Shown one piece after another: positions 3,554-33,912 of a stretch of 64,000 bases of DNA. The stretch covers positions 1 through 64,000 of the forward strand of contig JYFJ02001558.1 in assembly GCA_000934665.2 (NCBI GenBank). Direction: 5' to 3'. The notes under the pieces were generated by a model. The model was not told the origin of the DNA and ran no database searches. It worked only from the letters and a program-made list of their open reading frames with translations. The DNA is from Catajapyx aquilonaris. Taxonomy: Eukaryota. Every line of letters begins with the position of its first letter. Within the stretch, counting starts at the first letter, position 1. A program made the position numbers and the translations under genes.

Positions 3554-4922
3554 ATGCGGAATTCGACTTTCTGTAATGGTGAGGTAAAGATTAATAGTGC
3601 CGTGTGTTATGTCACAGGATACCTCTCGTTGGTAAGTGCAAGGCCTTGATACTTTTTTTCAAAACACTCTTATGCAGTCTATGTGTTTTAATAATAATTC
3701 TCTTTTTTTGCAGTCCAAATCCATAGTTAGTGTCGTTCTTATATTGCTCAGCGTCGGCATAAGCGAAGATTTTACCCTAACAGTGTACATGTGTTACGTA
3801 ACAGGTAAGCTCTAGTATAAAATGTATTGAGAGTGCTAATACCTAATATGCTACTACTTTCTTCGAACTCACTCTTTACAGTATGACAATTACCAAAGTT
3901 TTATTTTGTGCGTAGCGATGAGCAAGTTTAATCCTCTTTAGGACTATAGGATCCGCCCCTACAGTGTATAAGACAGTAATTGTCTATTATGCCTATACAT
4001 TAGTGCATTTATCATATTCTTGGAAAAGCAGGCTGGTGTTATTAGTACTAACTTATATCTTTAGAGGAAAGTATTGCACTTATCACAAACATTTGTTTCA
4101 GTGGATACCAATTTGCTGACAGTACTCCTGATTCTGAGTTTTGCGGAAATGGTTTTTTCCCCTCTTCTCATCACAGGACTCAGTAAGGTACAGTATACAG
4201 CTGGTTGAAACTTTTCCGTGGTGTCAATGGTTCACTGGTTACTTATTTTGGGGCACTAAAATTCCAAAACTCAAAACCATTGGTCCCAAAAATGACAGCT
4301 TCATTTTGTGAATTAATCTCATATAACTGATCAGGAGGCTACGTGATACAGTTTCCTGATTTTGCTTACTGTGCATTAACTGCTAATTTGCCCATTTTTT
4401 CTCGAACAGAAACATCCGCAGTTTCTGCTTCCTTGGTGGCTGCTCTACGCAGCCTACGAAGGAATAGTCGTATTTCTCATGTACCAAACATGGCACGAGC
4501 CAACACGATCCTACCCATCTTTCGACCACACTTTATCTGCTGAAGAATATGACGCCAGGATTAGGTTCACCCTCATCCTGGTTACAATTTTCCTGGTGCA
4601 GCTATTCCTGATGGCGAATGTTATAGTTCGAGCCATATCCATGAAGAATGCATCCAGTAATGTCAGATCATCGTCAATAATTACGTCCCATCATCAACAG
4701 CAACAAAGGATAGTGCACCATGTCCCTCAGCAAAGGTCCAGTTCAATGAGGGATTCTCCTCCTTCATATGAAGAGTGCGTCGTAGTAAATACTTTCTCCT
4801 CTGCACAATGCCCTGGAAGCATTTCGATCACTAGAGGAAGACTGCGCAGCCAGGGAACGGTTGCAGAAACGCCTCCTCCTTCATACAACAACTGTTCCTT
4901 CGCATTTACCAAATCATCTTGA
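3554..4922 (+). CDS. LAPTM/DUF4728-like four-TM membrane protein with two C-terminal PPSY motifs; exons 3554-3631, 3714-3804, 4102-4187, 4410-4922
   Basis: GT-AG junctions with consistent phases (0,1,0) give MRNSTFCNGEVKINSAVCYVTGYLSL|SKSIVSVVLILLSVG...|VDTNLLTVLLILSFAEMVFSPLLITGLSK|KHPQFLLPWWLLY...PPSYEE...PPPSY. The G-x-x-K..FLLPW signature is typical of the family. AATAAA at 5004. Confidence 0.8.
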
Positions 4923-5589
4923 ACTACAGTAATTTCGATCTCATTTATGTAGGCTAATAGTCCCAGTTAAATGTGAACTTCCATGGATATAAAATCGTGC
5001 TGTAATAAAAACACTCCTCGGCCGTGCTGATACGAAAGTGTTCGAGTTGATATGGATTTTATCCTGACTAATGAGAGCTACCCACGCGACATAATTGTTC
5101 ACATTGCAGTCTAATTTACATGATGACACAAATACAATACGGTACCGTATTTATCCTAAGTACAGTATCCTAAGTAAGCAAAGCTACCAGTACTATAGCT
5201 ACAGAATTTCGGGATGGACCTAGGGAATTGTCATTTGAAAGTAAATTGGTAGAGAGGTTTACCACTGTTATACAGTGCTAAGCTGATAGCCACAACTGCT
5301 ACCTTAGTCGCTGCGACTTTACGCTAGCAGCTTTTGTTAATAGTGGCGGATGCGACGCGATAATCGGCCCGTCGCATCTTCCGTCCGCCATTACGGAAAA
5401 GAGTGTCTGGACAGGAGTGGGCAAGGCAAGGCGAGGCAGAAAGACAGGCCAGAAAAGAGGACAAGACTTGGTATGCCCTGTTGATACGTGATAGACCAGG
5501 GGACTGCGGACAGGAGGTTGTCATCTATTGTGGTTTGGTGTGCACTCGGGTGGCCACGTCGAGTGGGAGACAGAGAGAGGGCAGAGGTC

Positions 5590-7864
5590 ATGGCGTCGCT
5601 GCCGGTGGAGCAGCAGCAGGGGCAGCAGATATGCCTCAAGTGGAACAGCTTCCACTCCTCGCTGGTGCACAGCTTCGAGTCTCTCTGGGAGGAGGAAGGC
5701 CTGGTCGACGTCACCCTCTCCTCAGACGGGCAGACCATCAAGGCGCACAAGGTTGTGCTCTCCGCATGCAGCCCGTACTTCAGGTCACTCTTCCAGGTAT
5801 AAAACACACACACACACACACACATATAGAAGGAGGGATAGACTGGGTGGAGGTGGCATGAGGCCCATTTCGTATGAGGCTGTTGTTAGCAAAATAAGCG
5901 TGGCTTCCCCCAGTCAGAGTTTAGATTGGCCTTCTGGGTTATTACGTTACATCTGTATGTGCCAACGAATGACTTACAGGACAGCTTTCACCTGGTGCAA
6001 ACACCTGCCAACCGACAAGCGACTGACATGGCTGCAGATTATTAGTCTTGGTGACTATTGAACTAATTATTATGGAAAGCTAGGGTGGCATGCACCACTT
6101 TTATTTTGCTAGCAATGTTCCTATATAATCATGCTTTTATACAGTATAGTCATTCATTGAGGTTGGTGAGGTTATGCTTTGCTCATTCGAGAAACTACAT
6201 TCTTTGATCCTTTGTCTTATGGTGAATGGGCCTGCAGAAGCAGACATTGTTAACAATTGCCCATGTTGTTCCTCAGTGCTGAAAGTAAAGATGTTCACAT
6301 ATATAAAGAGCTGCTTGTAATTGCAACAGTCCGGAGAGACGTGGTGGTCGAGATAGTAACAGCTTGGCTTGCTGTGTGAAAGGTCCCAGGTTCGATCCCC
6401 GCCAGGGAGATCCCTTTCACCTGCGCCAGGAGGGTCTCTGACCTGCGCTGTGGAGGCGTCTGGCAACCTAACACCACCAAACACCCCCCTCCCCCCCATT
6501 ATAAGTCATGCACCTGCCAGGAGTGCGGGGGAAAATCAACAGGTCTGGGGAAACATGGTATCTTTTAAAAATAATTTGAGTTTGTACACTTTCTTCACTT
6601 TGGTCTTAAGAATGCTAATTCAATTAGTAACCATAATTGTAAATAATTGATGAGGCAAAGGAGTGACTGTATATTACTGTGTTACAGAACAACCCCTGCC
6701 AACACCCTGTAATAATCTTACAAGGAGTACGCTACTCTGAGCTGGAGTCTCTGATGTGCTTTGTCTACAAGGGAGAGGTCAACATAAGCCAGGACAATCT
6801 GCCTGAGTTGCTCAGGGCTGCAGACACGCTTCATATCCGGGGACTCTCAGGTGCCTCAGAGCAAGTCAAGGAAAAAGTGAGTAGTGCTGAGGAGTTTGCA
6901 AGTAACTGGTGCACATCAAATTGTAATCTGGATGTGATTTGACATTGGTAGTTGGTCATTCCCCAACAGCGATAAAAAACTAGCCATTCATGTGGCAAAA
7001 TATGTCAAGAAGTTTAGCACCTTTAAATGAACTGTAGATCATAGAAGGGTATTGGCACCTTTTTATTTTTGAGAAGAGAAATCTGACATGCAAATTGGAG
7101 GAGCAACGTGGAACAAAAATTTTTGCTGTCATCATTCATGGGCCATGAGAAATATGATAGGTCAAATTTGACCACTGATTTAAATTTTTGTATGTGCCAT
7201 ATGGCATGAGATATTGTATATAATTTGCTATTTTTTAAGAGAAACAATGGCAAGTATGTTAACTGTGAGGGACATGTAGAATAATTTATCAATATAAAAA
7301 TTTAGTAAGAAAACCTTAGGCCCCTGTACTGCGTATTTTGACTTGAGGGCAACAATTAATTTGCGCAGGCGCCATAAGCTTCAATGTTGGTCCTGGAAAC
7401 CGCAGTGTGCCTTGATGTCACAGTTAGTTTGTTAGCTTCCATTAGATGACTAGCAATGTCGACAAATGAGACGGTCAGGATACGGTATGAAGTGGAGAGA
7501 AGTCAAGGTAATTGAAAATGGCACGAAATTTGAATTTGCTGAAGCAGCAATTGTTTCTGGAGCTGATTAGATATAGGTGCAGATATTAATATCCACTTAC
7601 ATTTGTAAAACTGCAAGAGTAGCTCTCTACTCACCATTTGCGGCCATTATAATTTTGCCAGCACAATTTCATCGCAATTTTTAGGCGGCACAGGGACAAT
7701 ATTGCTTGAGGTTTGAGTCCTAAGTCATTGTGCGTATTTTTATTTAAAAATGTACAGATTTGGCCATTATTACGTTTTCAAGGTCTGGTGATTACAATTT
7801 GGAGTGGAATATAGATGGTCCCGAGATCTCAAGGGGAGCCGGTAAATGAAAGGGGATCGTGGAC

Positions 7865-7905
<41 letters not shown>

Positions 7906-10900
7906 NGCCCCCACCCCGAGCTGCATGCAACGGTGGAATGGTGGGGGTTATAATCGCCTTTAGTTTTCTGGCCCCCCTTGCGATATGGATGGCATCTCTA
8001 TAACAGATAAAATTGTAATCGCCGGACCTTCAAGACTTAGCAAAGGTCATCTCTGTATGTGTTACGGTTTTTGAATAAAAAAATACTCGCCATAACTTCT
8101 GACTCAGCCCATGTAACTTCCAAGTCATTGGGTCGGAGATGACCAAAACATAATAAAAACCATCCTTACGTCACCTGTGATGAGAAAAAGGTGTTAGAAT
8201 TTTTTTCTTCCCAAAATCCTAAAAGTGTGCAATACAGCTGGGTTAGTATAGGCAGGATTCAGAGCTGATGAAGGTCTGATTGAGGCACTATGTTGAGGGG
8301 TGGATATTGTGACGATACTCTAATTTGCTACTGTGGAATCTGAACTCCTTGTTTTGCAGTCCTCAATGCCATTTTCAAAAGGTCCATTACACTCAGAAAT
8401 CAAGAACTGTGTTTCACTAGTTCATTATTGTGAGGCTTGCATTTTTTTCTCAGTGGAAGTGTGCCTTCAGTGAGTTAAAAGAGAGTTACAATGCATTTAT
8501 AGCATTTATATTGTTTTCAGATGGGTGGTAAGCATCCACATAGCTCTCGAACGAGTGACTCTCCTTTGCCCAAGCGTGCTCGCTCTTCTCATTTTACCCC
8601 CAACCCCCACCCTGCCCATCAGCCACAGCCTTCCCATCTATCCCACCCTCCCCATTCTTACCCATCTCCTTCTACCAGTTTTCCAAAATCACCCCAAGAA
8701 AACAAGTCATCAGGGAATCCATCCCAGGAAGTGAAGAATGAGCCTGAAGAGGAGTTTGATTGCTACGAAGAGAGTGAGTCAGGAGATGGTAAAGGAAGAG
8801 AAGAGAGAAGGGAAGAGGAAGATGATGACGACGATGAGATGCATGTGGTGGATGAAAGTGATGGAGCAGCCGTGTCTGGTCTGGGCCTGGAAGGGTTCAG
8901 GAGGGGTGCCTTTGATGGGAGGGTAGCACATGGGAGATTGTCGCCATCTGATCCACATCCCAAAGGTACAGGGTGCACTTGAAGTGCTTGCTTAGTCATA
9001 CTCTAAGACACAGTCTATCATTTCAAAGATGAGGTCACCTCAATTGGAAGCAAGCTTGTGTGAATACTTTTTCCATATTAAAAGTCACGCAATATACACA
9101 GGGTGTAAATCCTAGGCATGTCACCAGAAAAGGTGGTGGTAGAGGGCGCAGGTGTTAGCATTTTTGTATAAGGAACTAGTGGTCCACCTGCCAAGCCCCC
9201 CTCACCCATTCCGCTGTGTGCCACACGCCTCTTGCACACTGCCTGCCGCAAACTTGAAAGGGGCGTAACTCGGTGAGGGTGCGTTTCAGACTTCTAGTTC
9301 CTTATGCAAAAATGCTCACACCTGCGCCCTCTACCGCCAATGAAAGCCTGATTCAAGCATTATGACAGGATAATGCTGAATCTCTATGTAAATTATTCAC
9401 CAATGATATGGTGGCAAATGCATTTGAATTGGGTAGTTTATTGGATATCGTTATTGAAAACAATGGATTTGGCTGTGCCTAAGTGGCAGGAAATGTGGGC
9501 TCAGAGTGAGAAGGCAGTAGATGCCACATTTTCCTGCCCCTTGTGATAAATCCATTGTCAGTTCTGACAATGATATCTGATAAACAACAAATGCGTCTTG
9601 TATCAATCACATTTTTACATGCTTTCCTGTACTGGTAACAAGCCAAGTAATATTAGTGTATCCGGAAAGTAAGGTCTGTTATTTATTTTAAAAACCACAA
9701 TGCGCCCCCAAAAATTTTATTTACACATCTGAAATAGACAACTGTCTACTTTTTTTTTTTAAATAGTTTCCAAACAAATCGAGCCATTTTTCATTGAGTT
9801 ACCAAGATTTGTGGGCCTATGTCATAGAGCAGGGCTATTCAACTGGCGGACCGCGGTCCGGATCCGGACCTTCAATGGCCCAGGAAAGGTAAATACTGGA
9901 CCTTGTCATAAACTAGTTGAATACCCCTGACATAGAGTCTGCCCAAGCCATTTCCGCGATCCCTGAATGCTGGATTGCAACTCCTCGTCATCGTCAAGCT
10001 TCTGCTAGGCAAGCCATTTCTCCCTGCCCATGGACAGGTGGTAATCACTAGGCTCTAAATCCCGGGTGATCAAACAATTCTCACTTGAATTGTCGCAACA
10101 GGGTTCCAGTAAGCAAGCACAAGCAGTAGGCAGGCGGGCATTGTCGCACAAGAAAAACACCAGGAACTCAACATGCTGCTACACAATAATTCAAGTGTGA
10201 ATTGTTCGATCACCCGGGATTTAGAGCCTAGCGATTACCACCTGTCCAAGGAAAGGAAAAAATTGCTTGCAAAGCAGAAGGTTGACGATGACGAGGAGAT
10301 GCAATCCAGCATTCAGGGATAGCGGAAATGGCTGACGGCAGACCTCATGACATAGGCCCACAAGATCTTGTCTAACTCAATGAAAAATGCCTCGATTTGT
10401 TTGGAAACTATTTTGAAAAAAAAAGTAGGTAGTTGTCGATTTCAGATGTGTAAATAAAAATTTCGGGGGCGCATCGTGGTTTTAAAAATAAATAACGGAC
10501 CTTACTTTTCAGATACGCTAATATTTACACCAAGAAATTGGGAGTGAAAACAGCCTTGGGGTTCAATTGTGAGTCATCAAGAAAATCACATTGAGCCTAC
10601 TGTGTGAGACATTGGTAGTGAGGAGTGATATGCTCCAGTACACAGTTCAAGGCAGCTGTTTCCTCATTCATTTCATTTTTCAGATTTTGTAATAGTTTTT
10701 GTCGGGAAGGCGAAGTGGCGCTCTGGTAGCGCATGCGCCCACGGATGGAAGGGTCCCGGGTTCGATACCAAGCCCGGGCATTCCCCCCTTTCATCTCGTG
10801 CGGAATTCTGTGGCATCTCCGGCTTCGGCTAGGGTGGGATTTCCGATAGACGAACCACCCGGGGGAGCTCCAAAATGTCTACAGCAAATGACATTGCACT

Positions 10901-11032
10901 TGCACATTGCACATCCCCTCCCAGTCACCCTGCCCTTCGATCAAGGGCCAATTGTACATTGTCAAATTCATGTACCCATGTGACAAATAAAGGTCCGTGC
11001 TCAGACCTCTAAGGCACTATACCCAAATTATT

Positions 11033-11090
<58 letters not shown>

Positions 11091-11386
11091 GTTTTTGTCC
11101 TCTAACATTGCCTTTATGGGAATTAATCTTGCCTGCATTGTCTTAACTTCTATTGCCAGCCTTGGAAATTATTACGGTGTAACTACAAGGTTTGATGCAG
11201 GCTTGTGTTATTTTAGCATGACTGTGAAGAGGACCTAGATTGGTTAACTTGTGTGACATTTTTAGATATTTTTAAAATTTGCTGCATATCAGCATGAAGT
11301 ATCTATTACTAATCTCAGCCGTATATTTGCAGTGAAATTTGATGGCAGCCTGTTACATGGAGAAGGAAACCTGGACAGCAGTAGTG
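5590..11386 (+). CDS. Tramtrack-type BTB/POZ transcription factor (lola/mod(mdg4)/br-like architecture), common coding exons 5590-5796, 6688-6876, 8521-8965, 11333-11386
   Basis: QQICLKWNSF...VDVTLSSDGQTIKAHKVVLSACSPYFRSLFQ|NNPCQHPVIIL...FVYKGEVNISQDNLPELLRAADTLHIRGL is a TTK-type BTB domain. It is followed by a low-complexity linker with VKNEPEE and a 54-nt phase-1 exon (VKFDGSLLHGEGNLDSSS) with cag/gtgagt boundaries. Confidence 0.9.
6332..6550 (+). mobile_element. Diverged tRNA-derived SINE in BTB intron 1 (boundaries approximate)
   Basis: A-box-like TGGTCGAGATAG and B-box GGTTCGATCCC at tRNA spacing, followed by a non-tRNA GC-rich body. Confidence 0.55.
7710..8110. mobile_element. Diverged fold-back/MITE with a central poly-C tract
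   Basis: aaggtctggtgattacaatt (~7780) pairs with aattgtaatcgccggacctt (~8011). Further degenerate pairing extends outward. The ~45-nt C run at the centre contains an N. Confidence 0.55.
9095..9338. mobile_element. Tc1/mariner-type MITE, right terminus eroded
   Basis: TACACAGGGTG left end; ~45-bp arms at 9135-9179 and 9294-9338 are near-perfect inverted copies. Confidence 0.6.
9649..10525. mobile_element. Palindromic non-autonomous mariner derivative made of two inverted transposase 3' ends
   Basis: ~340-bp inverted arms (excluding the nested insertion). The right arm translates to degenerate DLEPSDYHL...DDDEEMQ...EKCLDLFGNYFEK, the mariner C-terminus. Confidence 0.85.
9830..9929. mobile_element. 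100-bp hAT (Buster-type) MITE nested in the mariner palindrome
   Basis: TIRs CAGGGCTATTCAACT / AGTTGAATACCCCTG; 8-bp TSD tcatagag/acatagag with central TA; absent from the opposite arm. Confidence 0.85.
10704..11085 (+). mobile_element. Full-length tRNA-derived SINE with (AAT)n tail
   Basis: A-box TGGCGCTCTGG, B-box GGTTCGATACC, long (AAT)n tail, and a perfect 14-bp TSD taatagtttttgtc (10690-10703 / 11086-11099). Confidence 0.9.
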
Positions 11387-11665
11387 GTGAGTTATTTCAT
11401 AAACCTAGTTTATTAATGTGTCACGATCAGTCACTTTATTTAATTTTTTTATTTTGCATTGTGTGTTGGTCACTTTGAGCATGGAAATGGTACAGTCCCT
11501 TCTTCAATGCTATGCTCTGGAAAAGAGTTTGAGCATTGAGGAAGTAATTTTTATGTGTCGAGATAGAAGAGGACTTGATGTTGGGACGGAAGACAGCTTA
11601 GGACATTTTCTTTTCTCACTCTCCACCACCTCTCTCTCCTTTTCCTGCCCTATCCTTGATTTCAG

Positions 11666-11919
11666 AACATAATGGCGACCTCTTGGCTGATGATGGGTTG
11701 TGCGAAGGTCATGCCCCTGGCAGGATCCAGCCAACAGGACGGCAGAGATACCCAAGAAGGAGGTGCAGAGTATGCTACTCAAGAGGAATCCGAAAGGAAA
11801 CTGCCTTCCTGTGCAAGAGCTGCATGGTTCCACTACATTTAGGCCGGTGTTTCCAAGATTTTCATCTGAAGTTTGCAGAAGTCAGTACCAATGGCAGTGA
11901 CCCTACAGCATCATTATAG
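11666..11919 (+). CDS. Alternative terminal exon A of the BTB gene: piggyBac-transposase-type C-terminal Cys-rich zinc-binding domain (isoform ~382 aa)
   Basis: Pyrimidine tract plus ttcag acceptor in phase 1, matching the common exon. Encodes GHAPGRIQPTGRQRYPRRRCRVCYSRGIRKETAFLCKSCMVPLHLGRCFQDFH. Confidence 0.75.
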
Positions 11920-12108
11920 GGGAGAGCGTTGGACAGCACCCAGTGTTTAAGACTGAGCCATTTCCATGCCCACAGTTGCCATGGGAAAAAAGACTGATCA
12001 TGTCAAGAGCAGTCAGTGCATCATGTGTGACTGCAATTCCGAAATTCTTAAATTCACATTTTTAAAAATTTAGTTTTATGTGAATACTTGAAAAGAGGAA
12101 CAAGTAGG

Positions 12109-12389
12109 CCTTACTGGCGGGAAGTGGCAGGGTGAGTGGTGGCTGGGGGCAGCTTGGCTGTGTCACAAAGGCAAGGATGCAAGGATTGATTTTTTGGATT
12201 TTGGAAGGGGTATGCTGTACCAACCTAACCTAACCAAGCCTAACCTTCCTTCCTTGCGGATACAGACCTATCTTCAGCCATACAGACCTATCTTCAGCGG
12301 ATACATGCCTATCCTTTATCCTTGCCTTTGTGACACAGCTTGCTGCCCCCACCTACTACTACCCTCCCACCTCCCGCATGCCAGTAAGG
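12109..12389. mobile_element. Diverged MITE/fold-back element
   Basis: ccttactggc..gctgtgtcacaaaggcaaggat pairs with atccttgcctttgtgacacagc..gccagtaagg; internal AACCT repeats. Confidence 0.7.
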
Positions 12390-13051
12390 ACAACTCTATC
12401 TGAAAAGAATTTGTGTAATAATTGTAAGCAATACTTTGGCTCTGGAAATTATTTTTAAGACTGTGCTTGTGAGGTGTCAAGTACTTCTAAATAGCCGTCC
12501 ATAACTTGCATTATGCTTCATAGAGGGGGATAGAATATTCCCTGCACTATTCTCTATTACAATGTACGGTACATTTCTTCAATTAATATCCACGGGAGTG
12601 AGCAAAAAATGACAAAAGTTAAGAGAGATAACTACAGTCTAAATATTGGCATAAATCATAAATGGTTAGTGTTAGAATGTGCGACTTGCATTTACATGTG
12701 GGTTAGGTTTAATGCTCAATTATATTGCGACAAAGAAACAGTTGTTCAGTCTCTCTGTTTTGACACTTTCATGTGTGATTGGAATGTATTAGCACTGGTT
12801 ATTTGTATTTTATGCTCCACAAAAGTGTAATCTTGTCTTTTTTTTAAATTTATACCAATAATTGGGTTCTCAGACACTTTGCTGCCTCCTTGGCAGAGAA
12901 GCTTTTCATGTAACTGCCTGGCGTGTGCAGTTGACTGAAAGTTGCATACCTACAAAATGCAAGTAACTTGCACCACTGGCAGAAATCAGGTTTTTAAATG
13001 GCTTGAATGTAATCAGTACTCATGCTCAAATCATCCAGCTTTTGATCATAA

Positions 13052-13182
13052 TGTAATGCCCCTTGGGTCATATCTGGCACACCATTTAGTGACATTTGGC
13101 ACTTAACAGGAAAAATATACAGAATTTTTTTTTTGCACTAAATGGTGTGCCAGATATGACCCAAGGGGCATTACAGGGTTAA
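13052..13182. mobile_element. piggyBac-type MITE (left terminus incomplete)
   Basis: Perfect 40-bp inverted repeat 13052-13091 / 13136-13175; the right end continues GGG-TTAA. Confidence 0.65.
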
Positions 13183-13650
13183 GGAAGGAAGGATCCGTGC
13201 AAAACTACCAGTCTATTAATTTTGATAAGTGATGCTTGAGAATGGCATTAATCTTTTTAGTCAGTAGAGGAATGCTGTTGAATCCATCTGTGATGATACT
13301 GGCTAATTTTTTGTGGTGTACCTTGTACATACAGGCCATTTAGTAAATGCATACGAGCCATTTACACTTTCCATAGCTCATGGGAAGTGACTGGATGGAA
13401 AGGACTGAATCAGAAAAATTTCAGCTGCACGTCCTTATGCAAGCCTGGTTATTTTAACACGTCTTGAATGCCGATATTACAGCTTACTCTTCGTTAACAG
13501 TTGATGCTCAATGCAAAAGTACAATTCACATACAATTTCAAATGGCCAAGGGCCTGTTACCGTAATGATGGCCATCATATCTTAGTTCACGTGCTTGACC
13601 GTGATGCCACACTTGATCATGTATGGAGATAATATTGTGTTTTGCCTAAC

Positions 13651-13852
13651 GCTGGGTATCCACGTAAAAGTTTCTCATGCCAGAGTCCTCTTGCACGAGA
13701 AAATTTGTCCGTCGAGATGGACTCGATGTCGCCTCAGGACCCCTTTGGACCCTCGGAAAAGGGATTAAAGTCGAAAATTGTCTACCTTTTCTCTTTCCTC
13801 TGATAAGTGAATGCGCAGTTGGCTTCTCTGACAAGAGAAAGAGATACCCAGC
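13651..13852. mobile_element. Possible small MITE
   Basis: 10-bp TIR gctgggtatc / gatacccagc; no clear TSD. Confidence 0.35.
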
Positions 13853-14370
13853 TTTAGATGGTAATACAGTAATTTCTCTTAAGGTGTAATTGAGCTATTG
13901 TGTGTCATGACCTTGGTGGAGTGACATTTGTGCTCAATCCTTCTTGTTCAGTCTCAACTGTCGAGTCAACATGCCTTTTGTATGGGTCAAACAATTCAAA
14001 TTCATTTTGTTCACCAACTTATGTAACGAGGTACTAGTACTGATTTGTGAAATCCTTCCTCTGCAAGAACTTGAATCATTCACACACAAAAAACCAATGT
14101 ACAGTAAATAGATGAGTGTATTTTGATTAAATTGTGATTTCCTGAGTTTTTAACAACCCCTGCTTGCTAATGTTATGCAAGGAATATGTTTGGATGTAAA
14201 AACGATGCTGAGCATTGCTTAACGGTAGGATTGTCATTAGAAATTATCATTCATTCAAAGAGGGATGTTAGTGATGTCACAATCCTTTAATTGTCAGTGT
14301 CATTGTTGACATTGCTGACAATCATTTTTGCCCATTGTGATGTCACTACTATTTCTAGTTGAATCAATTT

Positions 14371-15068
14371 TATGAGGGCCATACCATACAGATTTACATT
14401 TTATTTTTTTGCCACAAGTACAGGGCCATTACAGGTTGGCAGATAGGCACACGTTGATAATAGAATCATCTTGGAGCTGAATGCACTGGTGCCCCAAGTG
14501 TGGCAGCCTATCCAGGCCCTCCAGGAACCACGTTTTGGAGGTGCCATGCACTCAATCCCAGACCACTTCTCACAGTACAGCAATGTCTTTGAAGTGGCAT
14601 TGGGGAAGGGGTTTTTTCAGGTTTTGAGAAGAGAAGGGCATCATCCTCACCCAACTGACTAGAACCGAGCACTACCATAAGCAGCCCCTTGTACTGTATG
14701 TGGTGACCCTCCACATCTTGCAGTGTGCCATCCAAAAAATGTGGCCAGGGAAGTTCATGAGATGTGCTCTTGCAGCATGACAATGAACAGCCCCATACAA
14801 GCTGGGAAACAACGGCTGCCATTACTGAGTTTGGGTTCAGGTATGGCCATATCCGCCGTACTCTATCAACCTGGCATCCACTGACTCTCACCTGTCCAGA
14901 GCCATGAAAAAATCTCTTCGCCAACACCATTTTGAGGACACTGTTGAACTGCAAGCAGTTGTCTGGGAGCAGGTGTGCTGTACCTTCAAATTGTGGTGCC
15001 AACCTGTAAGGGCCCTGTATTTGTGGCAAAATATTAAAGGGTAAAATCAATATGATATGGCCAAAATA
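14371..15068. mobile_element. Rearranged mariner remnant with transposase pseudogene fragments in both orientations
   Basis: TATGAGGG start and ~75-bp degenerate TIRs. Plus strand gives LLQHDNEQPHT...PPYSINLASTDSHL (HDNAxPH / YSPDLAPSDY). The minus strand gives a C-terminal fragment GLDRLPH..CIQLQDD. Confidence 0.75.
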
Positions 15069-15831
15069 AATCTCACATGTAGCAAGTATTACCCCTTTTT
15101 TCGCCCCTGTCCAGGGCTACACCAGTTTGTGTCTGTTTGGCTCTTGGGACTAGACAGGAACTTGCACAAGTTCAAGAGAATGATGCTGTAAAAGAGGTGT
15201 CATCAGATTCAACTTGGCAGTGGCCTAAACAGGAGATGCTAGTTTTAATGGAAAATTTGAACTGGGCTGCTGGTTGAGATCTTAGGGAAAATCGAATTTG
15301 TTGTCCCCCGAGGTTATTTCTCACCTTGTTGTGTTCAAAATGCAAGGGATGTACTGTACAAAGGACCACTTACTAAGCAAGCTCAGGCATATTTGCAAGC
15401 ACTGTACAACCTTTCATGCTGATTATTGCAATCCAACTGGAATTCACAAGGAAGTCATGTTACCCAATCCTGCAATGAGACAGTTTGTACGTAGTTACCT
15501 GGCAAGCGAGTCTTTTGTAACCTGATGAATTTTATATTTGGACATTAGTTGTGCTTGATTCTGAGGTCAGATTGCCTCAGAACCTGTAAATTATTAAAGT
15601 TATGATTTTCATTGTGTAAATTATTTCCCAATAAATTAACAGCAATGAAAATAGATTGTTAAAAATTTACAGGTTTTGAGATAACTGAATGTTTTACTCA
15701 TACAGAAGGCATTGACTCTGGTTGAATGTGAAGAAAGTGCACCGGAAACAATAAATAGCTGGTTATGAAACCTTGACCTGTCCTATCCTTGACTGCAGTA
15801 TTTCTTATTATTATTTTTATATCTGATTCAG

Positions 15832-16256
15832 CTGCAACATCAACCAAGAGCTTTCCATATCCCCCTTTCCCGTGCCCCTTTTGTGACCGTGCATACACCA
15901 GTTGGGGTTTTCGACGGCGCCACATCAAAGCAGTGCACACCCAGTCACCACGACTTAGCTGCAAGTGGTGCTTGCAAGTTCTTCCTACTCACGAGGAGTG
16001 GGAGAAGCACGTCACGGCCGAGCATGCCCTTTCCAGAAGCGATGCTCACAATGGACTGCTCATTTTGGAGGAAGCTCACATGGTGCTGCAGATACCCAAT
16101 CCAACACGGTTGGACACATTTGTGGACATGATCAAGAAGACAGAAGAGAGGGAGAGGGAGGAAAAGGAGAAAGGAGGTGGCGGGGATGGGAATAAGGGTG
16201 GAGGTGGGGATAACAAGAAAGGGGGAGGAGGTGCAAGTGCATCTGGTGACAAGTAG
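15832..16256 (+). CDS. Alternative terminal exon B of the BTB gene: two C2H2 zinc fingers (isoform ~439 aa)
   Basis: ttcag acceptor in phase 1. Encodes FPCPFCDRAYTSWGFRRRHIKAVH and LSCKWCLQVLPTHEEWEKHVTAEH, then a Gly-rich tail and TAG. Confidence 0.85.
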
Positions 16257-18540
16257 TTAGATAGATTTAGAGGGAGAAGGTCATTCTTTGGCCAGGTGAC
16301 ATGGTGCATTGCTCTTTAGGGTTGATCACGTTCGGATAGTTGGCGCTAGGAAATCCATTGTGTGTGAAGTCAGAGAGTGAAATAATGGAAATAACATAGC
16401 CCACTTCCATTTTCAGAACAGATTGAGTGAATGCACCTAAGTGAGTTTTACCAGTAATGCTTGTTTTAGCCTAAATAAGGGAAACCATGGCTGGAAATCA
16501 AACTTGTTTGAAGCGTGTGGAGGGAACCAAAGAAGGATGAAACTCTCATGCAATTAGGGTAATTGTATATGTATATTTTTTACATATGTATGCAGTGATA
16601 AGTAGCAACTATAGCTTGAAAAACCTGGGTATCTGCTAAGGCATTGGCGATTACAAAATGTGGTAACCCAGGTACTCATCTGTATCAAAATTATTTTCAC
16701 CTGAAGGGAGCCTTGTGCTATAAGCACTCCAGCTATAAGCACTGCAGTGCTTTTTTTTTTTTTTTTTTTTATCGATACAGCACCAGTGTGTGCTTGGTAA
16801 AACTTTTTTTTTTGGCAGATAGTACCTGGTAGGGATTATGTATGCCAGTGAATCACCCCTGCATATTAAGGGCTAAATTTGAGTGCCTAACAGTAACAGA
16901 CTTATGCAATGCCAGACTTACACTGGACTTTCAAAAGGCACATTTGTGTGTATAATGGATATGCGGAGTGATTTATTCCTAGTTCCACACAGTGCACTTG
17001 GATGCTTGACTTGTAACATACCAATATGATGCAAGATGTTGTGGGTACTCAAAACCAACTGGGTACGCAATTCTGAACTTGTATCTAATTCCCAACAGTT
17101 CATTGGCTGTTTGGAATTAATTAGGTACCTGATGCCTGAATCCTTTTTCTGTTATTATTATTATTAGCAACATGGGTGCCTTGTAAATAATACCATGTAC
17201 TATGCAGTCTTCATTTAACTTGTTGAGGTACTTGTAATGAATTTTTAACTGCAGGGACCAATACATGACAGGTGTGAAGAGCAAGTTGGATATAATATTA
17301 TAAATGCCTTACAGAGGAGATTGTATTTTCTTAACATGCACTCAGTGGCATACTAGTGTAATTATTGCAGTATTAATACCACTACTCTGCAAAATGTTTA
17401 AAAATTTCTATGGCGTGGTATTTAATGGCTGACGTAGCAGAATTCAAAGGTGCTGATTTCAGATCTGCTTTCGATTTTTTTCCAGTCACACTTTGGGGGA
17501 AGAACAATCAAGGTCTACCCTTGGTCAAAAATGAGTTACATATCCAATAGGATAGTTTCACTAGCGCAGAATATCATGGTTTGGTCGTGGTTGTGGAGAA
17601 ATGATTATAGTCCACTATGGAAGGCCCCGAATGTGGGATGTACAATAGAATGTTTGAAATTCCATGTCTCAGTTTCACATGAGGTGGACCTGGATCATTC
17701 TTCACCTGGCAGGTAATGCCAATATGTTAATTTTGTGAATATAGCCAAAAAGTTTTCTTAGCTTTGATTATTATTTATTTAAAGAACATTTATGCTCCTA
17801 GTATACCCAAGATGTTTTTTTGTTTTCTGAATATTTTTGGTATAATTACTCGTAGGATGATTTGGTTAATTGTTTTATTTATTCTTCAGTAATTTTTATT
17901 TGATGTAATAGTAGCATGTGATAAAATTATGGCATCATTGCAGTCATACGTGACAGAAAAAGGGAAAGCAGATCTGAAATCAGCACCCTCGGGTTAGGTT
18001 ACATCATCCATCAAACTCCTTGCTGCAAAATCACTGCAGGGTAGTGTAGTTTGTCAGCATTTATTGGCGTGCACAATCACTTGGCAATACGTAGACTGCT
18101 GCATCTCTTGCACAAAGTCAGTTCACACTTCACAGGGACATGATAGGGCTTGCAAGTCACTAATTTCATAAGGTGAGCTTCAATAATAATAAGTTATGGA
18201 AAGTGACTAAGTTTTGTGAACCAAGTATTTTGAATGCCACTTTCTCAAAAATCATGCCTTGTGGAATTGGTAAGAACAAATCCAATCATGAACTGCTGCA
18301 CAAAACTACTTGTGAGCATTATGACTATGCAAATTTATATATGCTGACAAAATGAATTGAATGGTGTTATGCAAACAGGCAACAGCCCTGAGAATCCTGA
18401 AGACAGAGTAATATTAATGATGAATTGATGGTGTATTGTTATGCACTAACCCTTATTTAGAGAAACTATTCTTCAACCAATTAATAATCAGCCTCAGGTA
18501 AAAATTACTGACTGACAGTAATTTACAACATACCCTATGT

Positions 18541-18717
18541 CAGTGGTTTTAACCTGGGGTGCCCGCAACCCCAGGTGGCTCCCATGGGGTGCAAGCAAGG
18601 TGCACCTCTGGACTTAGTCTAACTATGAACTTAATCAATCACCCCTGGTATATGGGGGGAGACAAAGATCAACTGTCTTCAAAGGGGTGCATAGGCCCAA
18701 AAAGGTTAAGAACCCTG
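18541..18717. mobile_element. hAT (Buster-type) MITE
   Basis: CAGTGGTTTTAACCT / AGGTTAAGAACCCTG termini; 8-bp TSD ccctatgt/gcctatgt. Confidence 0.75.
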
Positions 18718-21070
18718 GCCTATGTGTATTAAAATTTTCAACATGGTAATGCATTTCCCTTGAGGATGTGACAGATTGGTTCCTGTTTTCATAACACTAT
18801 CTAGTTGTCACAATATTTGCACAGAAAATGTATGTTCAAATAGGTGCAATAAGTGCAAATGTATCAAATGTGGTAGTGTGTACAGCAGGCTACCACGAGA
18901 GAATGTATCTCACAAATATTACTTTTTGCTACACATAACTTGTTCGTTGTTTGTGGCTTGTTTTACATTGTTGCTTATGTGTATGAAAGTTTTAGTGCCA
19001 AACCTTTGTTTTGTTTCATTTCTATTTTTGTGTGTCATCAATAGCCTGTATTTATAGTTGCTATTTTGATACAGACAATTGCTATCATTGTAATATTCTG
19101 GCTGATTAAAGCACGAAGTTCATCACTGATTTGTGTTTATTTGCACCTAAATGACATGGTGCATGATATACTGCACTCTGGCAATTTTTGAAAGACTTGC
19201 CAGTCCACCACCATGTCAGACCACATGTAAATGAAGTTTCCACAGGTTCAGTTGATTCTGTGTCCCTGACTGCGACTTTATGCTACACACACACAAAACG
19301 AGTAAGCTACTCAGCAAGGAACCTTGCAAGGCTTGATAATTACAATGTGTAAAGCAAGGTAGCTGACGTCAAATGGAATGTGAAGCCTGTCCAGATAGGG
19401 AGGGTTGCTTTTACCGGATGAAATTGGCATGGTGATTGCGAAGCACGGGGGAAATAAGCCAATTATTGCGTCTTTTGATCGTGGAAGCGGAAAACTTGTT
19501 GGAATTCAGCCAGCCACGGCTACGCAAATTAGAACCGACAAGCCAAAGAGAATTGTTAATCAGATATTAATTAACAAGGCTTCATTTTTAGCCTCCCTCA
19601 TTTTTTATGTAGCATTCTTCTTGCTACCGTGGCGCTTTTTATTGGCAGCGAAGGGTGGGGCTCCATGTGTTTTTTGTGCCATTATTTTAATACGAGTTTT
19701 TTAGTACGATAATTCTATTTATACTAATCAACATCCATGATTGTAGCTTAATGAGGCTAATTTGCTATAGTGTAATATCTTGTATATCTGACTCTCATTT
19801 TTAGAATAATGTTAATAAAAGCTCAACGTCACTCTGGCAATGGACAATGCTAACTATTTATCCATAGATAAGAGAACCAGTGACAATGCAGCTAGTGTTG
19901 AGTGGACACGATAATTGGCCTGCGTCACTGCCTATTTCAAGGGAAATTGGATCCGGAGTGGCATCGGTCGTCTTTGTGCCTTTAAAAAACATGCCGTAAA
20001 ACATGTGTCAATTGTGGTGAATACCTCCATTAGAGCTCTTTTCAACCCGCGTCCGGCAAATTACATGTCGGGAGAACGCCCTCATGGGAAAGTTTTAACC
20101 CCAGCCCTTTTTATTTAGTTGTCCTGTCCATTCCCCACTGACGCTCTTTGGGACGACAGTATAATACACGAGTATGTAACAACAACAAAAAAAAGAAGAG
20201 TAAAAGCACACCCTCTTCAAAAGAGGATTGGCTCAAATGAAAAGGTTGGCAACAGATGCATGCAGTTACAAGGAGGGTGTTTTGAATGAGCCCGTTTTCT
20301 GTTTGCCGGATGTCTTTGTGCTCCTCTGTCCGATCCTGTCAGTGTCACCTGGGATTAGGACGGATGGAGGATCCTTGTTATGCGGGTCCTTTCTCGTTGG
20401 CCAGTTTGAGATTTCCGGACAGATCATTTTGGCATCCGAGTGGCTGTAATGGCACAGATTGATTCTTGATAACTTAGGATTCGTCATTAGAAATAAATCA
20501 TAGGTCACAGTTTTTGGTTGTGTTCTTTATTTTTACGGACTTAACTCTATAACACTGAACTTACACATCTGTCACAACCATTCGATTCAGAGAAAATGTG
20601 TTGTAATAACCAGTGCAAAATTCAGATGTATTTACATTTTGCTGAGGATAATATTGCACATTGTGGTTACAGAGACAAGAATTATTACTTAGCTGACGCA
20701 GTTGCTGGCTTATCTGATAACTCTCATGATATAGTCGTGTTAGGGATACCGCTGTATCAAATGTGAACAAAATATACTATGTATACGTACTGTGTAGACG
20801 AAGGTATTTACTGGCTATTCTGAAACACCGTATTCGGGGCACCATCAAGGATCACCTTATGTAGCGTATTGGTCTCAGCAGCCTCGTTAACTATATTAAC
20901 ATTAATAAATTATATGTTGCATTATATCATCATGCCGGATATTGCGGATGCAGCCTATCGCATCCATCGCCATCATTATTGGCTGCTACATCCATGAGAT
21001 CGCAGTTTAAATCAAAATGGCATGGTAACACCAAGTAGGTTTGGGTAACACCCAAGATTTTAAATAATTA

Positions 21071-21413
21071 CAGAAGTCCCTGGTCTATGAACGGGGTTTA
21101 GTTCTTGAAAATCATGTCCGTATGTCGGATTTGTACGTAACTCGGATCCCCAAGGAACAGCGCATAAGCACCAGTCAACGAACCGCTTACGTCATGTGTG
21201 TTTGTTTACATGCGCGAGAGAACGTAGTTTCCCAATTATTTATTAATATTATGCAGTAGTTATGTTGAACTTTGTGTTTGTCAATGTACTCAGAAGTGAT
21301 TGAAAGTGGAGGGATAATAATTAATTAGAAATTATCTTACTGGGGAGCTTTGGGAGCCCGTTCGTAAGTACGGATTGCCGCAAGTCGGGTCGTTCGTAAC
21401 CGGGGACTACCTG
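21071..21413. mobile_element. pogo/Tigger-like MITE
   Basis: TA-CAGAAGTCCCTGGTCTATGAAC ... GTTCGTAACCGGGGACTACCTG-TA termini with subterminal cgtaa repeats. Confidence 0.7.
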
Positions 21414-23262
21414 TATATGGCAAGGCTGCATGGAGGTACGCACATCTGCCAGGATATTTCACACCTTGCGGAGACTGCGGAGACCAAAATATGATATATC
21501 TCAACACATAGAGTGACCCTCTTAAAAGTTGATATTAGATGCCGGCTTATTGTTTGAATCATTGTGAAACACCTGTATGATGAGACTGAATGAGTTTCTG
21601 TGACTTACAACAACTCCCTGAATAACGGCTAGTGGTAGAATATCGTAAACCTAATATTGCAAGGTATCAAGGGTGACCAATAATCAACGCATGACTGAAC
21701 AATTAATAAATTACTTCCGCTTATTATACGACCACTTCTCGTGTACTTGGTGAATGAATAGTATAGCCTGTTCTATACCTAGAAACTCAAGTTACTACAA
21801 CCGTCTGTTAGGTTGCTGCGGGTACTTGTCATTTATAGGTTTGGTGCCATTTTGTTGCTTATTTGATTAACACTAGGAGTAAGTGCATATGTAGGCACAT
21901 AAAATAGTAAATTATTATTTGCGATAATGCTAGTCTCCTGAATAAGGTAAAACTTGATTTCTCATGGGCAGTGAAGTGTCGCGTTGAACATTGTAAATTA
22001 TAAATTATGGACTGGCATAGTACTACACATCCACGTAACAGCCATTTGATGAACCATTCTTAAAAAATTTCCGTGTGCATTTAACTATCTGAAGTGCATT
22101 CTCATGGAGTTCCAACATCCACCGCCTCTGGATGTGCCCTTTCTACGCTAATCGGCTGGCAGCATCAATACGTTAGGTATACTAACTTGTAGGGACTATT
22201 TACAATGCAAGCGAGAAAAGGAGAGGATTCCAATGTGGTGTGCCAATCTGCAGATTCCATCCTTCCTTGTTTACGATATCTGAGGAAAAATTATCATATG
22301 AGACAAAGAATGATCCATTAGAGGGCTGAAGATCCGTGCCAATATGCATTTTCATGTAGTTGCTTGACAGCAGCGTTTCACACAGGTTATACGGTTGAGA
22401 GACATTGTGACTTATTGAGATGTAAGAGCAGATAACAACATTACGAACATGTACATAAACCTTAAAGTACCTGTTCTTTATGATGTGTCGACGAATATAA
22501 TGGTTTATTGTTCAGTCTTATGTTCTTGTATAATGAACACTGCAGATTTTAAAGATAAGCTTAAGTTAACGATACGCAATACATTTGAAAAAAAAAGTGT
22601 TGGAAGAATAAATTGCAACAGGGTGACACATCATTAAGCTAGCCTACTTGAAGTTGTCAGTTTTCTCCATCCACTTAGGCCTGCAAGAATTATACTTTCA
22701 TGTCGTAATATGCATAATACGAGAGTGCTCAGTTGTTTTCTTCTGAGACATCGTGTAAGTGCGGTAAGAAATAATAATGATCACTGATAGATGTATACAC
22801 TGCTGCTGCTGGATTCCCCGGTGAATGCATCTCATACTTATACGAAGCATAATTACGTGTGTTGAAGTTACTTAAATTTCTTGTTTTAGTCTGGCTCCCA
22901 AATGAAATAAAGTGTTTCATTTCGGGCGAAAATACACACACCCACGTCCACAAGCAATATTATTGTACACTATATTACTGCTGGAAAGTTTGATATGGAA
23001 TCTCTGGCGCTTTCCAGGGAACGTATAATTAATTATCCAGGCTATAACTTTAGAATTTGCGTCTTAAAAATCTGCTAAAGTTACATCAAAATACTGAAGC
23101 GTATATAGGCTATCTGAAATAAATTAAAATAGTTCTATAACTATACACTCGAGTCAGTCTGCTGTCCCACTGGAATTGCTTCAAACTTGGCTCAGCACAC
23201 TTTGACTGGCTTTGTCGTTGACGTATAAAACAGTATCTGGTATGTCCGTCGGTCTTGACCAA

Positions 23263-32200: not shown

Positions 32201-33912
32201 GGATGGGATGCAATTGTCCCTGCTTTTTTAAGAACCCCCCTTCATAAATCGTGCAGGAAGTTGATACCACATGAAATTGCACTGTACTATACGTACAGTA
32301 TTATTTATTCCGTTCCATGTTTTACTCGAAATTTTGCCAAAAAACGTGCATAAAAACGCACCAAAATTGAAGACAGCAGCAGCACTGAATACCTTTTTTG
32401 AGGATAGGGCTGGTGTGCGGGTTCCTGTACCGATGATGCAGCGACGAGCAATTCCACCTGTCATTCCTGAACTGCCTTTGACACTCATCCAGGGCTACCT
32501 GGAAGCCCCTCAGGGCCATCAGGGTGGCGTCCGGGAATTTGGAGCACACTTCGGCTTGTTCTTTACGAAGACCCGGAAGGTTCTTGCACACCGCGTTCAC
32601 TTCCAGGGGTAGAGGTCTCTTCCTTGAGGAACCAAGACGCCGCAGTTTCTGCGACCACGACGACGAAGTTCGCGGAAGTGATCTGCTCGAGGTCGAGTTC
32701 TGGCCACGCATTTGGTTGGCAGCACTCCTGGTGACAAAATGGCTTCATATAAGTCATAAATGTTGCCAATAAGCACATATCCTATTTACCCTATTTTATT
32801 TTACAAAACAAGTCAGTTGTCAGACGAATTTTCCACAACAATTTTCACAACAATAAAATTGAAGAAGACCACCTGCGCATTAAAGGGCCGATTGGCATGG
32901 AGCATGGCAGGATAACTGGGAATATTTATTTTGATGTTAGACAAAAAAAAATATATTGTCCAACCGGTTGGAGAGGTTGGTTTGGCAGACCGAATTTTCT
33001 GTGGCAAGTCCAACCCATCACATGATTCATTCATTACTGGATTGGAGAACCAATAGCGACATATTTTGCGGCGAACCTATCATTACAAAGAGTTTTAACT
33101 GCTCTTTCAGAACTGTTCTGGATTTGAAATAATAAGCCTTTGGAAAAGAAACCAGTCTTTCTGATTAGTAATTCAACTCGGCGCAAATATACGGTGGCAT
33201 GGCCTAAATAAGTGGCGAGTTGATAATGCATTAATAGTTTTCCCTGCAGGTAACTACACCTGACGTGCTGTTTCAGGCTCAGCATCAGGTTGTTCATACA
33301 CAGCAGGAAACATGTGTCTCCTGTTTACGTGTCTTTCTTACATATTGAATGTAATTGTCACTTCTTTTTCGCAGATCCTAATTTTAATCCGTAAATATTG
33401 TGCATGTAATAAACTACGTAGGCAGAGTGTGACAAGTGCCGGTAAAACGGGATTACGAAAGAAAAGGATTTCATGATCACACACCTATTATTCGTACAAT
33501 GAAACAAGGTGTCATGAAAGTGCCACGAAGAGAAGACAAATAACGACGTTTGCGTGCAAGAGAGTCGATTAAGAACATGTGAAGAATGACGTTATCACGT
33601 GGCCTTGCGCTAATGTCTTCACCTGCTGACTTTTTTCTGCCATCTTTGCCAGTCACACTAATGGACGTCACGCCACATCAGCGGACTCGTGAAAATTACT
33701 CTTTTCCTCAATCCTTCCTTGTCAGTGTGACCGCCATTTTCGACGGGCATCACGGTGACATCATCAATGGAAGGGAACGTCGGAAGAAACCTTCTTCCTT
33801 GTCTCTAACATGGGAGGGAGACTTACCCCATTTCGGTGCAGAGAGATAGTGATGCGAGGAGAAGCAGCAGGGACAGCGAGGAACTGGGTCCTTTGCTGCT
33901 CTTCGGGGCCAT
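23263..33912 (-). CDS. Wnt10: Wnt10 (403 aa); exons 33912-33827, 32727-32393, 25015-24690, 23727-23263
   Basis: Signal peptide MAPKSSKGPSSSLSLLLLLASLSLC; ECQRQFRNDRWNCSSL..RNPHTSPILKKGYRESAF (Wnt10-like); [35 protein letters not shown]. Splice phases are consistent (2,1,0). Confidence 0.9.

Follow-up and report, generated by a model that had tools for sequence, protein, structure and literature searches.

The question raised by this locus is how the C-terminal module of a transposase has come to stand at the end of a host gene, and whether the resulting protein is kept for a purpose. The stretch of DNA in question (hereafter the window) comprises 64,000 nucleotides (nt) of contig JYFJ02001558.1 from Catajapyx aquilonaris (assembly GCA_000934665.2), eukaryotic DNA of ~42% G+C, in which a gene encoding a BTB-domain factor lies on the + strand at ~5.6-16.3 kb. 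Two alternative last exons are served by one splice donor in this gene: one encodes a pair of C2H2 zinc fingers, and the other, at 11666-11919, encodes a cysteine-rich domain (CRD) that an initial annotation had taken for the domesticated DNA-binding domain of a piggyBac transposase. The present data make it very probable that the CRD exon is a spliced exon of piggyBac origin, and a host-transposase fusion made through alternative choice of the 3' exon is supported. That the BTB-CRD isoform is maintained for a function is a proposition to which we give slightly less than even chances, while the whole explanation, by which a core-less zinc module was captured as an alternative last exon and would have a DNA-binding role, appears to us evenly poised. 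The term “domesticated” and the tethering of BTB multimers to piggyBac ends are treated throughout as hypotheses.

Identity of the CRD exon

11666..11919, + strand: CRD exon, the alternative 3'-terminal coding exon, of 84 codons including a split first codon, with a TAG stop at 11917-11919
11692..11874, + strand: similarity to the C-termini of piggyBac-family transposases (tblastn), considered true and spanning all eight zinc ligands

The CRD exon encodes a peptide of 83 residues (translation of 11668-11925), on which a residue count reproduces exactly the histidine and cysteine spacing claimed earlier, H15-x17-C33-x2-C36-x12-C49-x2-C52-x4-H57-x3-C61-x4-H66. The profile check that had been proposed for this peptide found Pfam PF13842, zf-Tnp_2 (formerly Tnp_zf-ribbon_2), at 27.4 bits and E 5.1e-6, above the gathering cut-off of 24, with the match covering profile positions 15-60 of 60. 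Among 1.84 billion representative proteins, phmmer found 389 relatives at E<=1e-3, and many of the best 150 of these, which were scanned against Pfam (79 from the E<=1e-3 set and 71 from the E<=1e-5 set), are piggyBac transposases or fragments in which DDE_Tnp_1_7 precedes the same C-terminal module. The best word-index match (“longer” setting, one hit) was P0001, a 243-aa C-terminal fragment of a piggyBac transposase ending in ...CFQDFHLKKKY, as compared to ...CFQDFHLKF... in the CRD exon, and by tblastn the transposase P0004 (626 amino acids (aa), DDE_Tnp_1_7 plus zf-Tnp_2) is 52% identical over 61 residues. This transposase similarity begins at ~11692, 26 nt into the exon, and ends at 11874; nothing convincingly similar to transposases was found by tblastn upstream of the CRD acceptor. 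In an alignment of 48 sequences the CRD exon keeps all four invariant and five near-invariant columns, and the zinc ligands are invariant or at least 90% conserved with the exception of H57, which is shared by the nearest relatives. The ESM Atlas held only small zf-Tnp_2 clusters, none with a BTB domain. One metagenome locus, L001, was retrieved as a match to the CRD and was discarded as chance, as it covered residues 6-24 only and left the zinc domain unmatched.

Structural comparison leads to the same family. The sole significant match of the CRD in a sequence search of the PDB was the piggyBat transposase 9c0f, an entry released in 2025 (chain residues 526-574, E 7.3e-10), in an alignment that includes the unusual PLH histidine ligand. 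An AlphaFold2 model of the CRD, based on the 48-sequence alignment, has a mean predicted local distance difference test score of 81, with the blocks at 11-70 scoring 84-97. When this model was submitted to Foldseek, 9c0f_C and 9c0f_D were the only matches at E<=0.001 (probability 1.00, TMq 0.60-0.61), and the predicted model superposed on 9c0f_C with a root-mean-square deviation of 1.4 A over 54 columns; the remaining matches, a weak tail that includes HIT and C1 domains, had E values of at least 2.5, with T. ni piggyBac entries at 0/39.

The report on the piggyBat domain (PMC11707139) describes a fold that differs from that of the T. ni piggyBac domain and that is probably common to PGBD2/3/4 and Daphnia Pokey, holding two zinc ions in a Cys3His plus Cys2His2 cross-brace. 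The same text relates that an imperfect palindrome near the left end of piggyBat is read by a pair of these domains, contributed by a transposase dimer, with major-groove contacts made by R543/E545 and an N-terminal minor-groove loop at G495-T502 (PMC11707139). The five cysteines and three histidines of the CRD match the Cys3His plus Cys2His2 scheme in order and spacing, and R42-K43-E44 aligns with a chain R-x-E that would correspond to R543/E545, a mapping that assumes a 6-residue offset between the numbering of the chain and that of the paper. The CRD resembles piggyBat, PGBD2/3/4 and Pokey in Pfam family and in the order and spacing of its ligands, and 41% of residues are identical to 9c0f in the 54 aligned columns. 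Unlike the piggyBat transposase, it has no catalytic core and no detectable N-terminal minor-groove loop, and it carries a 17-residue tail beyond the last histidine, whereas the transposases stop after 3-6 residues. The Pfam profile, the PDB sequence match and the predicted fold agree with the identity put forward at the outset: on sequence and modelling grounds, the CRD is a piggyBat/PGBD4-type piggyBac transposase C-terminal zinc module, with eight ligands for two zinc ions.

Joining of the CRD exon to the BTB gene

5590..5796, + strand: exon 1 (69 codons, phase 0), which carries the start codon and the first half of the BTB domain, with a GT donor at 5797
6688..6876, + strand: exon 2 (63 codons), which carries the second half of the BTB domain
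8521..8965, + strand: exon 3, low-complexity Ser/Pro/His-rich and acidic linker ending in phase 1, frame open, GT/AG borders
11333..11386, + strand: exon 4, the last exon shared by the isoforms, 54 nt with phase 1 at either end, one donor for both alternative terminal exons
11387..11665, + strand: intron before the CRD exon, 279 nt with a long pyrimidine tract, GT donor at 11387 and AG at 11664-11665
15832..16256, + strand: exon B, the alternative 3'-terminal exon with two C2H2 fingers (Pfam zf-C2H2), 141 codons, stop at 16254-16256

Both halves of the BTB domain are recognised by Pfam (exon 1, E 4e-12; exon 2, E 2e-10), and the acceptor of exon 4 at 11332/11333 is a prediction. When the exons are joined, two complete frames are obtained, BTB-CRD of 382 aa and BTB-C2H2 of 439 aa, with no internal stops and with GT-AG borders throughout. 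The two terminal exons that were detected, C2H2 and CRD, share the donor at 11386; the 89 other + strand frames of at least 40 aa between 8966 and 23200 held no Pfam domain that would point to further terminal exons.

Evidence of splicing is provided by one public run, X1, for which contigs only were available; it contains 0.43 of the sampled words from 11666-12070, and its contigs were placed on 4001-23000. Six joints are given by these contigs, of which three are GT..AG and fall exactly at predicted exon borders. The first joins exon 2 to exon 3 (6876->8521), and its shorter side has 109 letters. The second, 11385/6->11665/6, joins exon 4 to the CRD exon in one contig at a depth of 2.7, and the third, 11385/6->15831/2, joins exon 4 to the C2H2 exon in one contig at a depth of 3.9; a contig also lies on 15831-16143 within the C2H2 exon. 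The three remaining joints are not GT..AG: two lie within the repeat at 10.7-10.9 kb, and the third is found at 17.5-17.7 kb. Exon 4 is assigned to the BTB gene because its C2H2 partner exon is found alongside this BTB within individual insect proteins. The 11386->11666 junction that the initial annotation had asked to be looked for in sequencing runs is therefore present, in one X1 contig anchored by 29 letters, and with its C2H2 counterpart it bears out the proposal of an alternative last exon of a BTB gene. The description of an intact phase-1 exon 279 nt beyond the last common BTB exon also stands (AG at 11664-11665, GT donor at 11387, frame open), as does that of a host-transposase fusion, in the sense that transposase-derived sequence is joined in frame to host exons by the X1 joint and the open 382-aa frame.

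The class of the BTB domain is less certain. Its N-terminal motif reads ICLKWN, as compared to the TTK-type FxLRWN, with three of five fixed positions exact and two conservative, and in a PDB sequence search with the orthologue P0153, human ZBTB17/BCL6 and NAC1 chimeras outranked the TTK-type BTB of CG6765. A TTK-type label leans on a variant motif and is tentative, and the PDB search fails to separate this domain from other ZBTB-type BTBs.

Contigs of X1 were also continuous over 15045-19216 (100% identity, depth 2-30), ending at ~19.2 kb. The span from 16257 onward may represent a long 3' untranslated region of the C2H2 isoform, while a retained intron or another transcript may account for 15045-15749, which precedes the C2H2 acceptor.

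Orthologues and age of the two endings

The search with the BTB exon found 175 proteins at E<=1e-5, and the 120 listed are mostly insect proteins, the best of which are 72-81% identical to this BTB and which carry NCBI names of the bric-a-brac, tramtrack, GAGA or abrupt-like kind. The listed isoforms are either BTB plus C2H2 or BTB plus BEN (PF10523). Of 15 orthologues tested, nine match exons 1 and 2 as well as 15819-16142, the C2H2 region, with 72-88% identity there; the six without a C2H2 ending comprise five BEN isoforms and one (P0267) with another ending. By sequence comparison, then, the BTB gene is old and its C2H2 ending strongly conserved. Isoform lengths in insects are 381-386 aa for BEN and 404-455 aa for C2H2, as compared to 382 aa (CRD) and 439 aa (C2H2) here. 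By tblastn with the orthologues, the window gave no match to a BEN exon at E<=0.01; recurrent weak hits of a permissive search (E 0.05-18) at 38166-38258 (+ strand), 42328-42513 (- strand) and 5049-5141 (- strand) were rejected, as their frames look like noise.

The second ending of the insect orthologues is BEN, and the piggyBac module occupies the place of that isoform here. The absence of the CRD ending from the listed relatives, together with its position in place of BEN, points to a lineage-specific gain, and the CRD ending is probably lineage-specific. However, the database may lack close relatives of the source species, because exon 3 found no relatives by word-index protein search. As a separate observation, BTB-BEN orthologues such as P0154, P0159, P0163, P0185 and others recall vertebrate NACC1/2 in their architecture, and the best PDB matches include a NAC1 BTB chimera.

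Possible remains of a transposon around the exon

11419..11518, no strand assigned: left arm of an inverted repeat, weak and gapped, within the 279-nt intron
11923..12005, no strand assigned: right arm of the inverted repeat, just past the CRD stop codon

The whole 64 kb was searched by tblastn for the DDE_Tnp_1_7 core with 32 relatives of at least 350 aa, most of which possess it, and matches at E<=0.01 were confined to 11560-11937, so that the earlier statement that no DDD core adjoins the exon holds for the entire window. By blastn, no second copy of the CRD exon or its flanks is found in the 64 kb, and X1 depth is ~1 over the CRD exon as compared to 180 over the repeat at 10341-10974. The accompanying statement that no terminal inverted repeat is adjacent survives in part: no TTAA-flanked terminal repeat was found, but a weak inverted repeat does flank the CRD exon. 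Its pieces were returned by the repeat search as I4 (31 nt, 81%) and I22 (19 nt, 79%). The local alignment of the arms scores 21.7, as compared to 12.7+-2.2 in shuffles (0 of 500 reach it) and up to 19.8 in real-sequence controls (fourteen other stretches and the same downstream stretch taken forward), and its blastn E value within the window is 0.038. In the RNA folds of 11387-12020, minimum-energy and centroid alike, the two arms pair with each other (z -2.8, 20 shuffles). The left arm has a TTAA two bases beyond its outer edge, and the right end lacks one. The TTAA at 11947-11950 was considered as a piggyBac end and rejected, the adjoining 17-mer having no partner in the window.

The inverted repeat is taken as a lead only. 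It could represent the ends of a ~590-bp internally deleted element, or it could form a stem in the RNA by which the acceptor and exon are looped out. A piggyBac element, autonomous or not, would be expected to show the core, or TTAA-flanked terminal inverted repeats and multiple copies; here the core is absent, the window has no second copy and TTAA lies near the left arm only. An immobile host-transposase fusion would have neither a core nor functional ends, and no core within 64 kb and no TTAA-flanked terminal repeat were found.

Other repeats are found in the same gene. Intron 3 contains nested inverted repeats at 9649-10525, of 153 nt at 91% (9649-9801/10373-10525) and 146 nt at 90% (9946-10091/10188-10333). 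An open frame at 10113-10322, which has no Pfam match, resembles the C-terminus of a mariner transposase. The X1 depth of up to 180 at 10341-10974 indicates that intron 3 carries other transposons. A hairpin-like element resembling a miniature inverted-repeat transposable element (MITE) lies 200 nt past the CRD exon (12135-12178/12318-12360), with a pairing of 22 perfect nt and a further 19 nt at 84%, 139-188 nt apart.

The acceptors of the two endings

11644-11665, + strand: 22-nt acceptor motif CCTGCCCTATCCTTGATTTCAG, ending in the used CRD acceptor
15777..15798, + strand: second copy of the motif, 19/22 identical, 33 nt upstream of the used C2H2 acceptor

The 40 nt before the CRD acceptor are 85% pyrimidine, the highest value among six acceptors compared. 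The copy of the motif at 15777-15798 ends in CAG and would be an in-frame alternative acceptor. The 28-nt pairing between the two acceptor regions has a blastn E value of 0.13, and the motif pattern was built from its own two sites, which makes the search with it circular, while pyrimidine tracts resemble one another in any case. The occurrence of the motif at both alternative acceptors nevertheless suggests a copied acceptor or a common cis-element for the choice of terminal exon.

Relation to known systems

Capture of transposases through intron insertion and alternative splicing is recurrent in tetrapods, according to a preprint on the subject (bioRxiv 10.1101/2020.05.07.082677), which makes no mention of BTB. 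The likeness of the present locus to CSB-PGBD3 of primates, KRABINER and SETMAR resides in an intronic transposon, an alternative acceptor and a fusion made beside the normal isoform. CSB-PGBD3 keeps the whole or most of the transposase. Fusions of the KRABINER/SETMAR type do likewise, whereas here a ~60-residue C-terminal module is joined to a BTB host domain in an arthropod. The analogy to CSB-PGBD3 drawn in the initial annotation therefore holds for the mechanism, intronic capture by alternative splicing, but not for the extent of the capture, as only ~60 transposase residues are kept.

From the side of the host gene, the nearest parallels are lola and mod(mdg4) of Drosophila, in which common BTB exons are followed by alternative DNA-binding terminal exons, as here; mod(mdg4) uses FLYWCH and lola C2H2 (PMC11426971, a Tramtrack-BTB survey). 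These genes have many terminal exons, whereas two were detected in the present gene. Transposases and piggyBac are not mentioned in the text of the survey (PMC11426971), and its supp7 has no Tnp_zf-ribbon_2 row. A further table of the survey (elife-96832-supp8.xlsx) includes a Strigamia maritima BTB protein, T1INN2, with HTH_Tnp_Tc5 and a weak Tnp_zf-ribbon_2 at E 0.156. The text of a 10-million-protein screen for transposable element (TE) domains (PMC12062965) gives a BTB domain with an integrase zinc domain and no pairing with piggyBac, although its supplement may list one, and a preprint on metazoan TE-derived transcription factors makes no mention of piggyBac. The earlier impression that no BTB-piggyBac-CRD isoform had been described is in keeping with the full-text literature search, which found none.

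A core-less C-terminal zinc module is carried by several database proteins, namely P0095 (KRAB plus C2H2), P0041 (zf-AD plus C2H2; module detected by phmmer only), P0096, P0078 and P0002 (C2H2) and P0050 (MAD). None of these has a BTB domain, and all are unnamed gene predictions, some of which may be run-together exons. Because they carry the module without a DDE core, core-less capture appears to have happened elsewhere. The Tetrahymena protein LIA5 was set aside as a core-less precedent, as it keeps a DDE_Tnp_1_7-like region. Separately, two to three tandem piggyBac-type zinc modules without a core are present in P0035, P0047, P0106, P0122, P0013 and P0002, the last of which alternates zinc modules with C2H2 fingers; these proteins may represent run-together alternative exons or a multi-module family.

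A model for the capture

Taken as a whole, these observations can be arranged into a model of how the fusion arose and what it may do. The likeliest first step is the insertion of a piggyBac-like element, or of an internally deleted copy of one, into the last intron of a BTB-C2H2 gene. An acceptor just upstream of the last ~60 codons of the element would then have come into use, such that transcripts end in the zinc module, and the donor at 11386 would choose between the ancient C2H2 exon (439 aa) and the CRD exon (382 aa). BTB domains self-associate: those of ZBTB factors form dimers and those of the Tramtrack group form hexamers, according to PMC11426971. Such self-association could replace the transposase dimer and restore a paired module. 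In that case, the BTB-CRD isoform would bind DNA in a sequence-specific manner, at a target set unlike that of its C2H2 sibling, with which it may co-assemble, and its likeliest targets would be the subterminal palindromes of the parent piggyBac family. Selection on the isoform, its binding to DNA, its targets and its oligomeric state are matters that we infer.

An extended form of this model may also be considered, although we think it unlikely. The lineage would have swapped a BEN ending for the piggyBat-type module, and the isoform would act on parental palindromes and MITEs, with the inverted repeat and the shared acceptor motif together forming an isoform switch. If this were true, BTB-CRD would silence or immobilise the parent piggyBac family and its MITEs by competing with transposase, mixed BTB-CRD/C2H2 oligomers would wire dispersed sites into the regulatory network of the factor, and the repeat and motif would set the ratio of the isoforms.

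Weighing the model against its alternatives

Several observations weigh against the model and are best taken together. X1 is a single run whose kind is not on record as RNA; both alternative-exon joints rest on 29 letters in exon 4, where 31 were required for bridging, and each is given by one contig at low depth. The exon 3-4 junction, like that of exons 1 and 2, was unseen in X1; stretches of the gene that the run leaves uncovered carry no weight. Within 1.8 kb past the CRD stop, neither AATAAA nor ATTAAA occurs, and a strong donor-like site at 12132 lies beyond the CRD exon, so that the CRD stop would be premature if this site were used; no joint from 12132 was found in X1. Evidence of conservation is likewise missing, as none of the 150 listed CRD relatives has a BTB domain and none of the 120 listed BTB orthologues (175 in all) has PF13842. 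The N-terminal third of the piggyBat domain, including the minor-groove loop, has no detectable counterpart in the CRD. Finally, the weak inverted repeat brackets the CRD exon as the remnant of a short non-autonomous element would. With regard to the joints, an overlap of 29-30 letters is what a graph assembly would probably leave at the branch point of an exon used in both isoforms. The two 29-letter joints were accepted because they have the same start in the shared exon, cross the donor and AG exactly, and leave the zinc frames open.

The alternative that survives best is a young and neutral exonisation, in which a short deleted piggyBac-like element (~11419-12005) is spliced accidentally at a low level and has no maintained function. 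We consider this a possibility of some substance, if a tentative one. The flanking inverted repeat with its TTAA two bases outside the left arm, the low depth of the CRD joint in a single run and the lack of a nearby poly(A) signal would all be expected of such an element, as would the absence of the exon from the 120 listed orthologues, which have the BEN alternative ending; moreover, a recent insertion equally predicts an intact frame and intact ligands. However, the repeat is weak, its blastn E value being 0.038 and its controls reaching 19.8 as compared to 21.7, its right end has neither TTAA nor a recognisable terminal repeat, and no second copy exists in the 64 kb. The X1 depth of ~1, as compared to 180 at 10341-10974, argues that there is no paralogous pile-up, and the long pyrimidine tract and the 22-nt motif shared with the region upstream of the C2H2 exon look host-shaped.

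It is also conceivable, although very unlikely in our estimation, that the module is kept for a role other than DNA binding, either as a zinc domain for interaction with protein or RNA or as a decoy against the ends or partner subunits of an active piggyBac transposase. The structural neighbours of the piggyBat domain, namely ZNHIT2 and the C1 domains of chimerin and PKC, are not DNA-binding according to PMC11707139; HIT and C1 domains occur in the weak Foldseek tail of the CRD model, and the minor-groove loop is not detectably retained. In contrast, the two major-groove contact residues appear conserved, given the assumed numbering offset, and the sibling exon encodes a DNA-binding C2H2 pair, such that an exchange of one reader for another is the simplest account. 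Hardly credible, finally, is an artefact in which the CRD exon is a free-standing transposon relic in an intron and is not joined to the BTB gene, for although the exon 4 anchor is only 29 letters long and the kind of X1 is not on record, those letters end at a GT donor and resume after an AG such that the frame of the zinc domain stays open, a second contig links the same donor to the C2H2 exon, and the long-anchored exon 2-3 joint in a third contig shows that X1 holds spliced RNA of the BTB gene.

Other features of the window

Two head-to-head Wnt genes lie downstream of the BTB gene, at 23263-32741 on the - strand and 56787-60577 on the + strand, with Pfam wnt matches at E 9e-58, 6e-27 and 8e-12 for three - strand exons and at 2e-14 and 8e-76 for two + strand exons. 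Upstream of the BTB gene, an uninterrupted frame of 416 codons at 1525-2775 on the - strand has no Pfam match and is possibly a single-exon gene. In intron 2, a homopolymer-like G/C run at 7857-7906, with a single N at 7906, is probably a soft spot of the assembly.

Implications

Capture of transposases by splicing has been documented mainly in tetrapods and usually involves whole frames, DNA-binding domain and core together, while arthropod BTB factors are known for swapping their C-terminal DNA readers; the CRD locus joins both themes. Its unusual features are the minimal, core-less nature of the capture, of ~60 residues, and a self-associating BTB partner that could take over the part of the transposase dimer; the solved relative of the captured module binds DNA only as a pair. 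If the BTB-CRD isoform is maintained, the locus could serve to test whether a multimerisation domain can substitute for a transposase core on DNA, and whether the dispersed ends of the parent element can become new binding sites. If instead the CRD exon is a young accident, then an early step of exon capture is on view.

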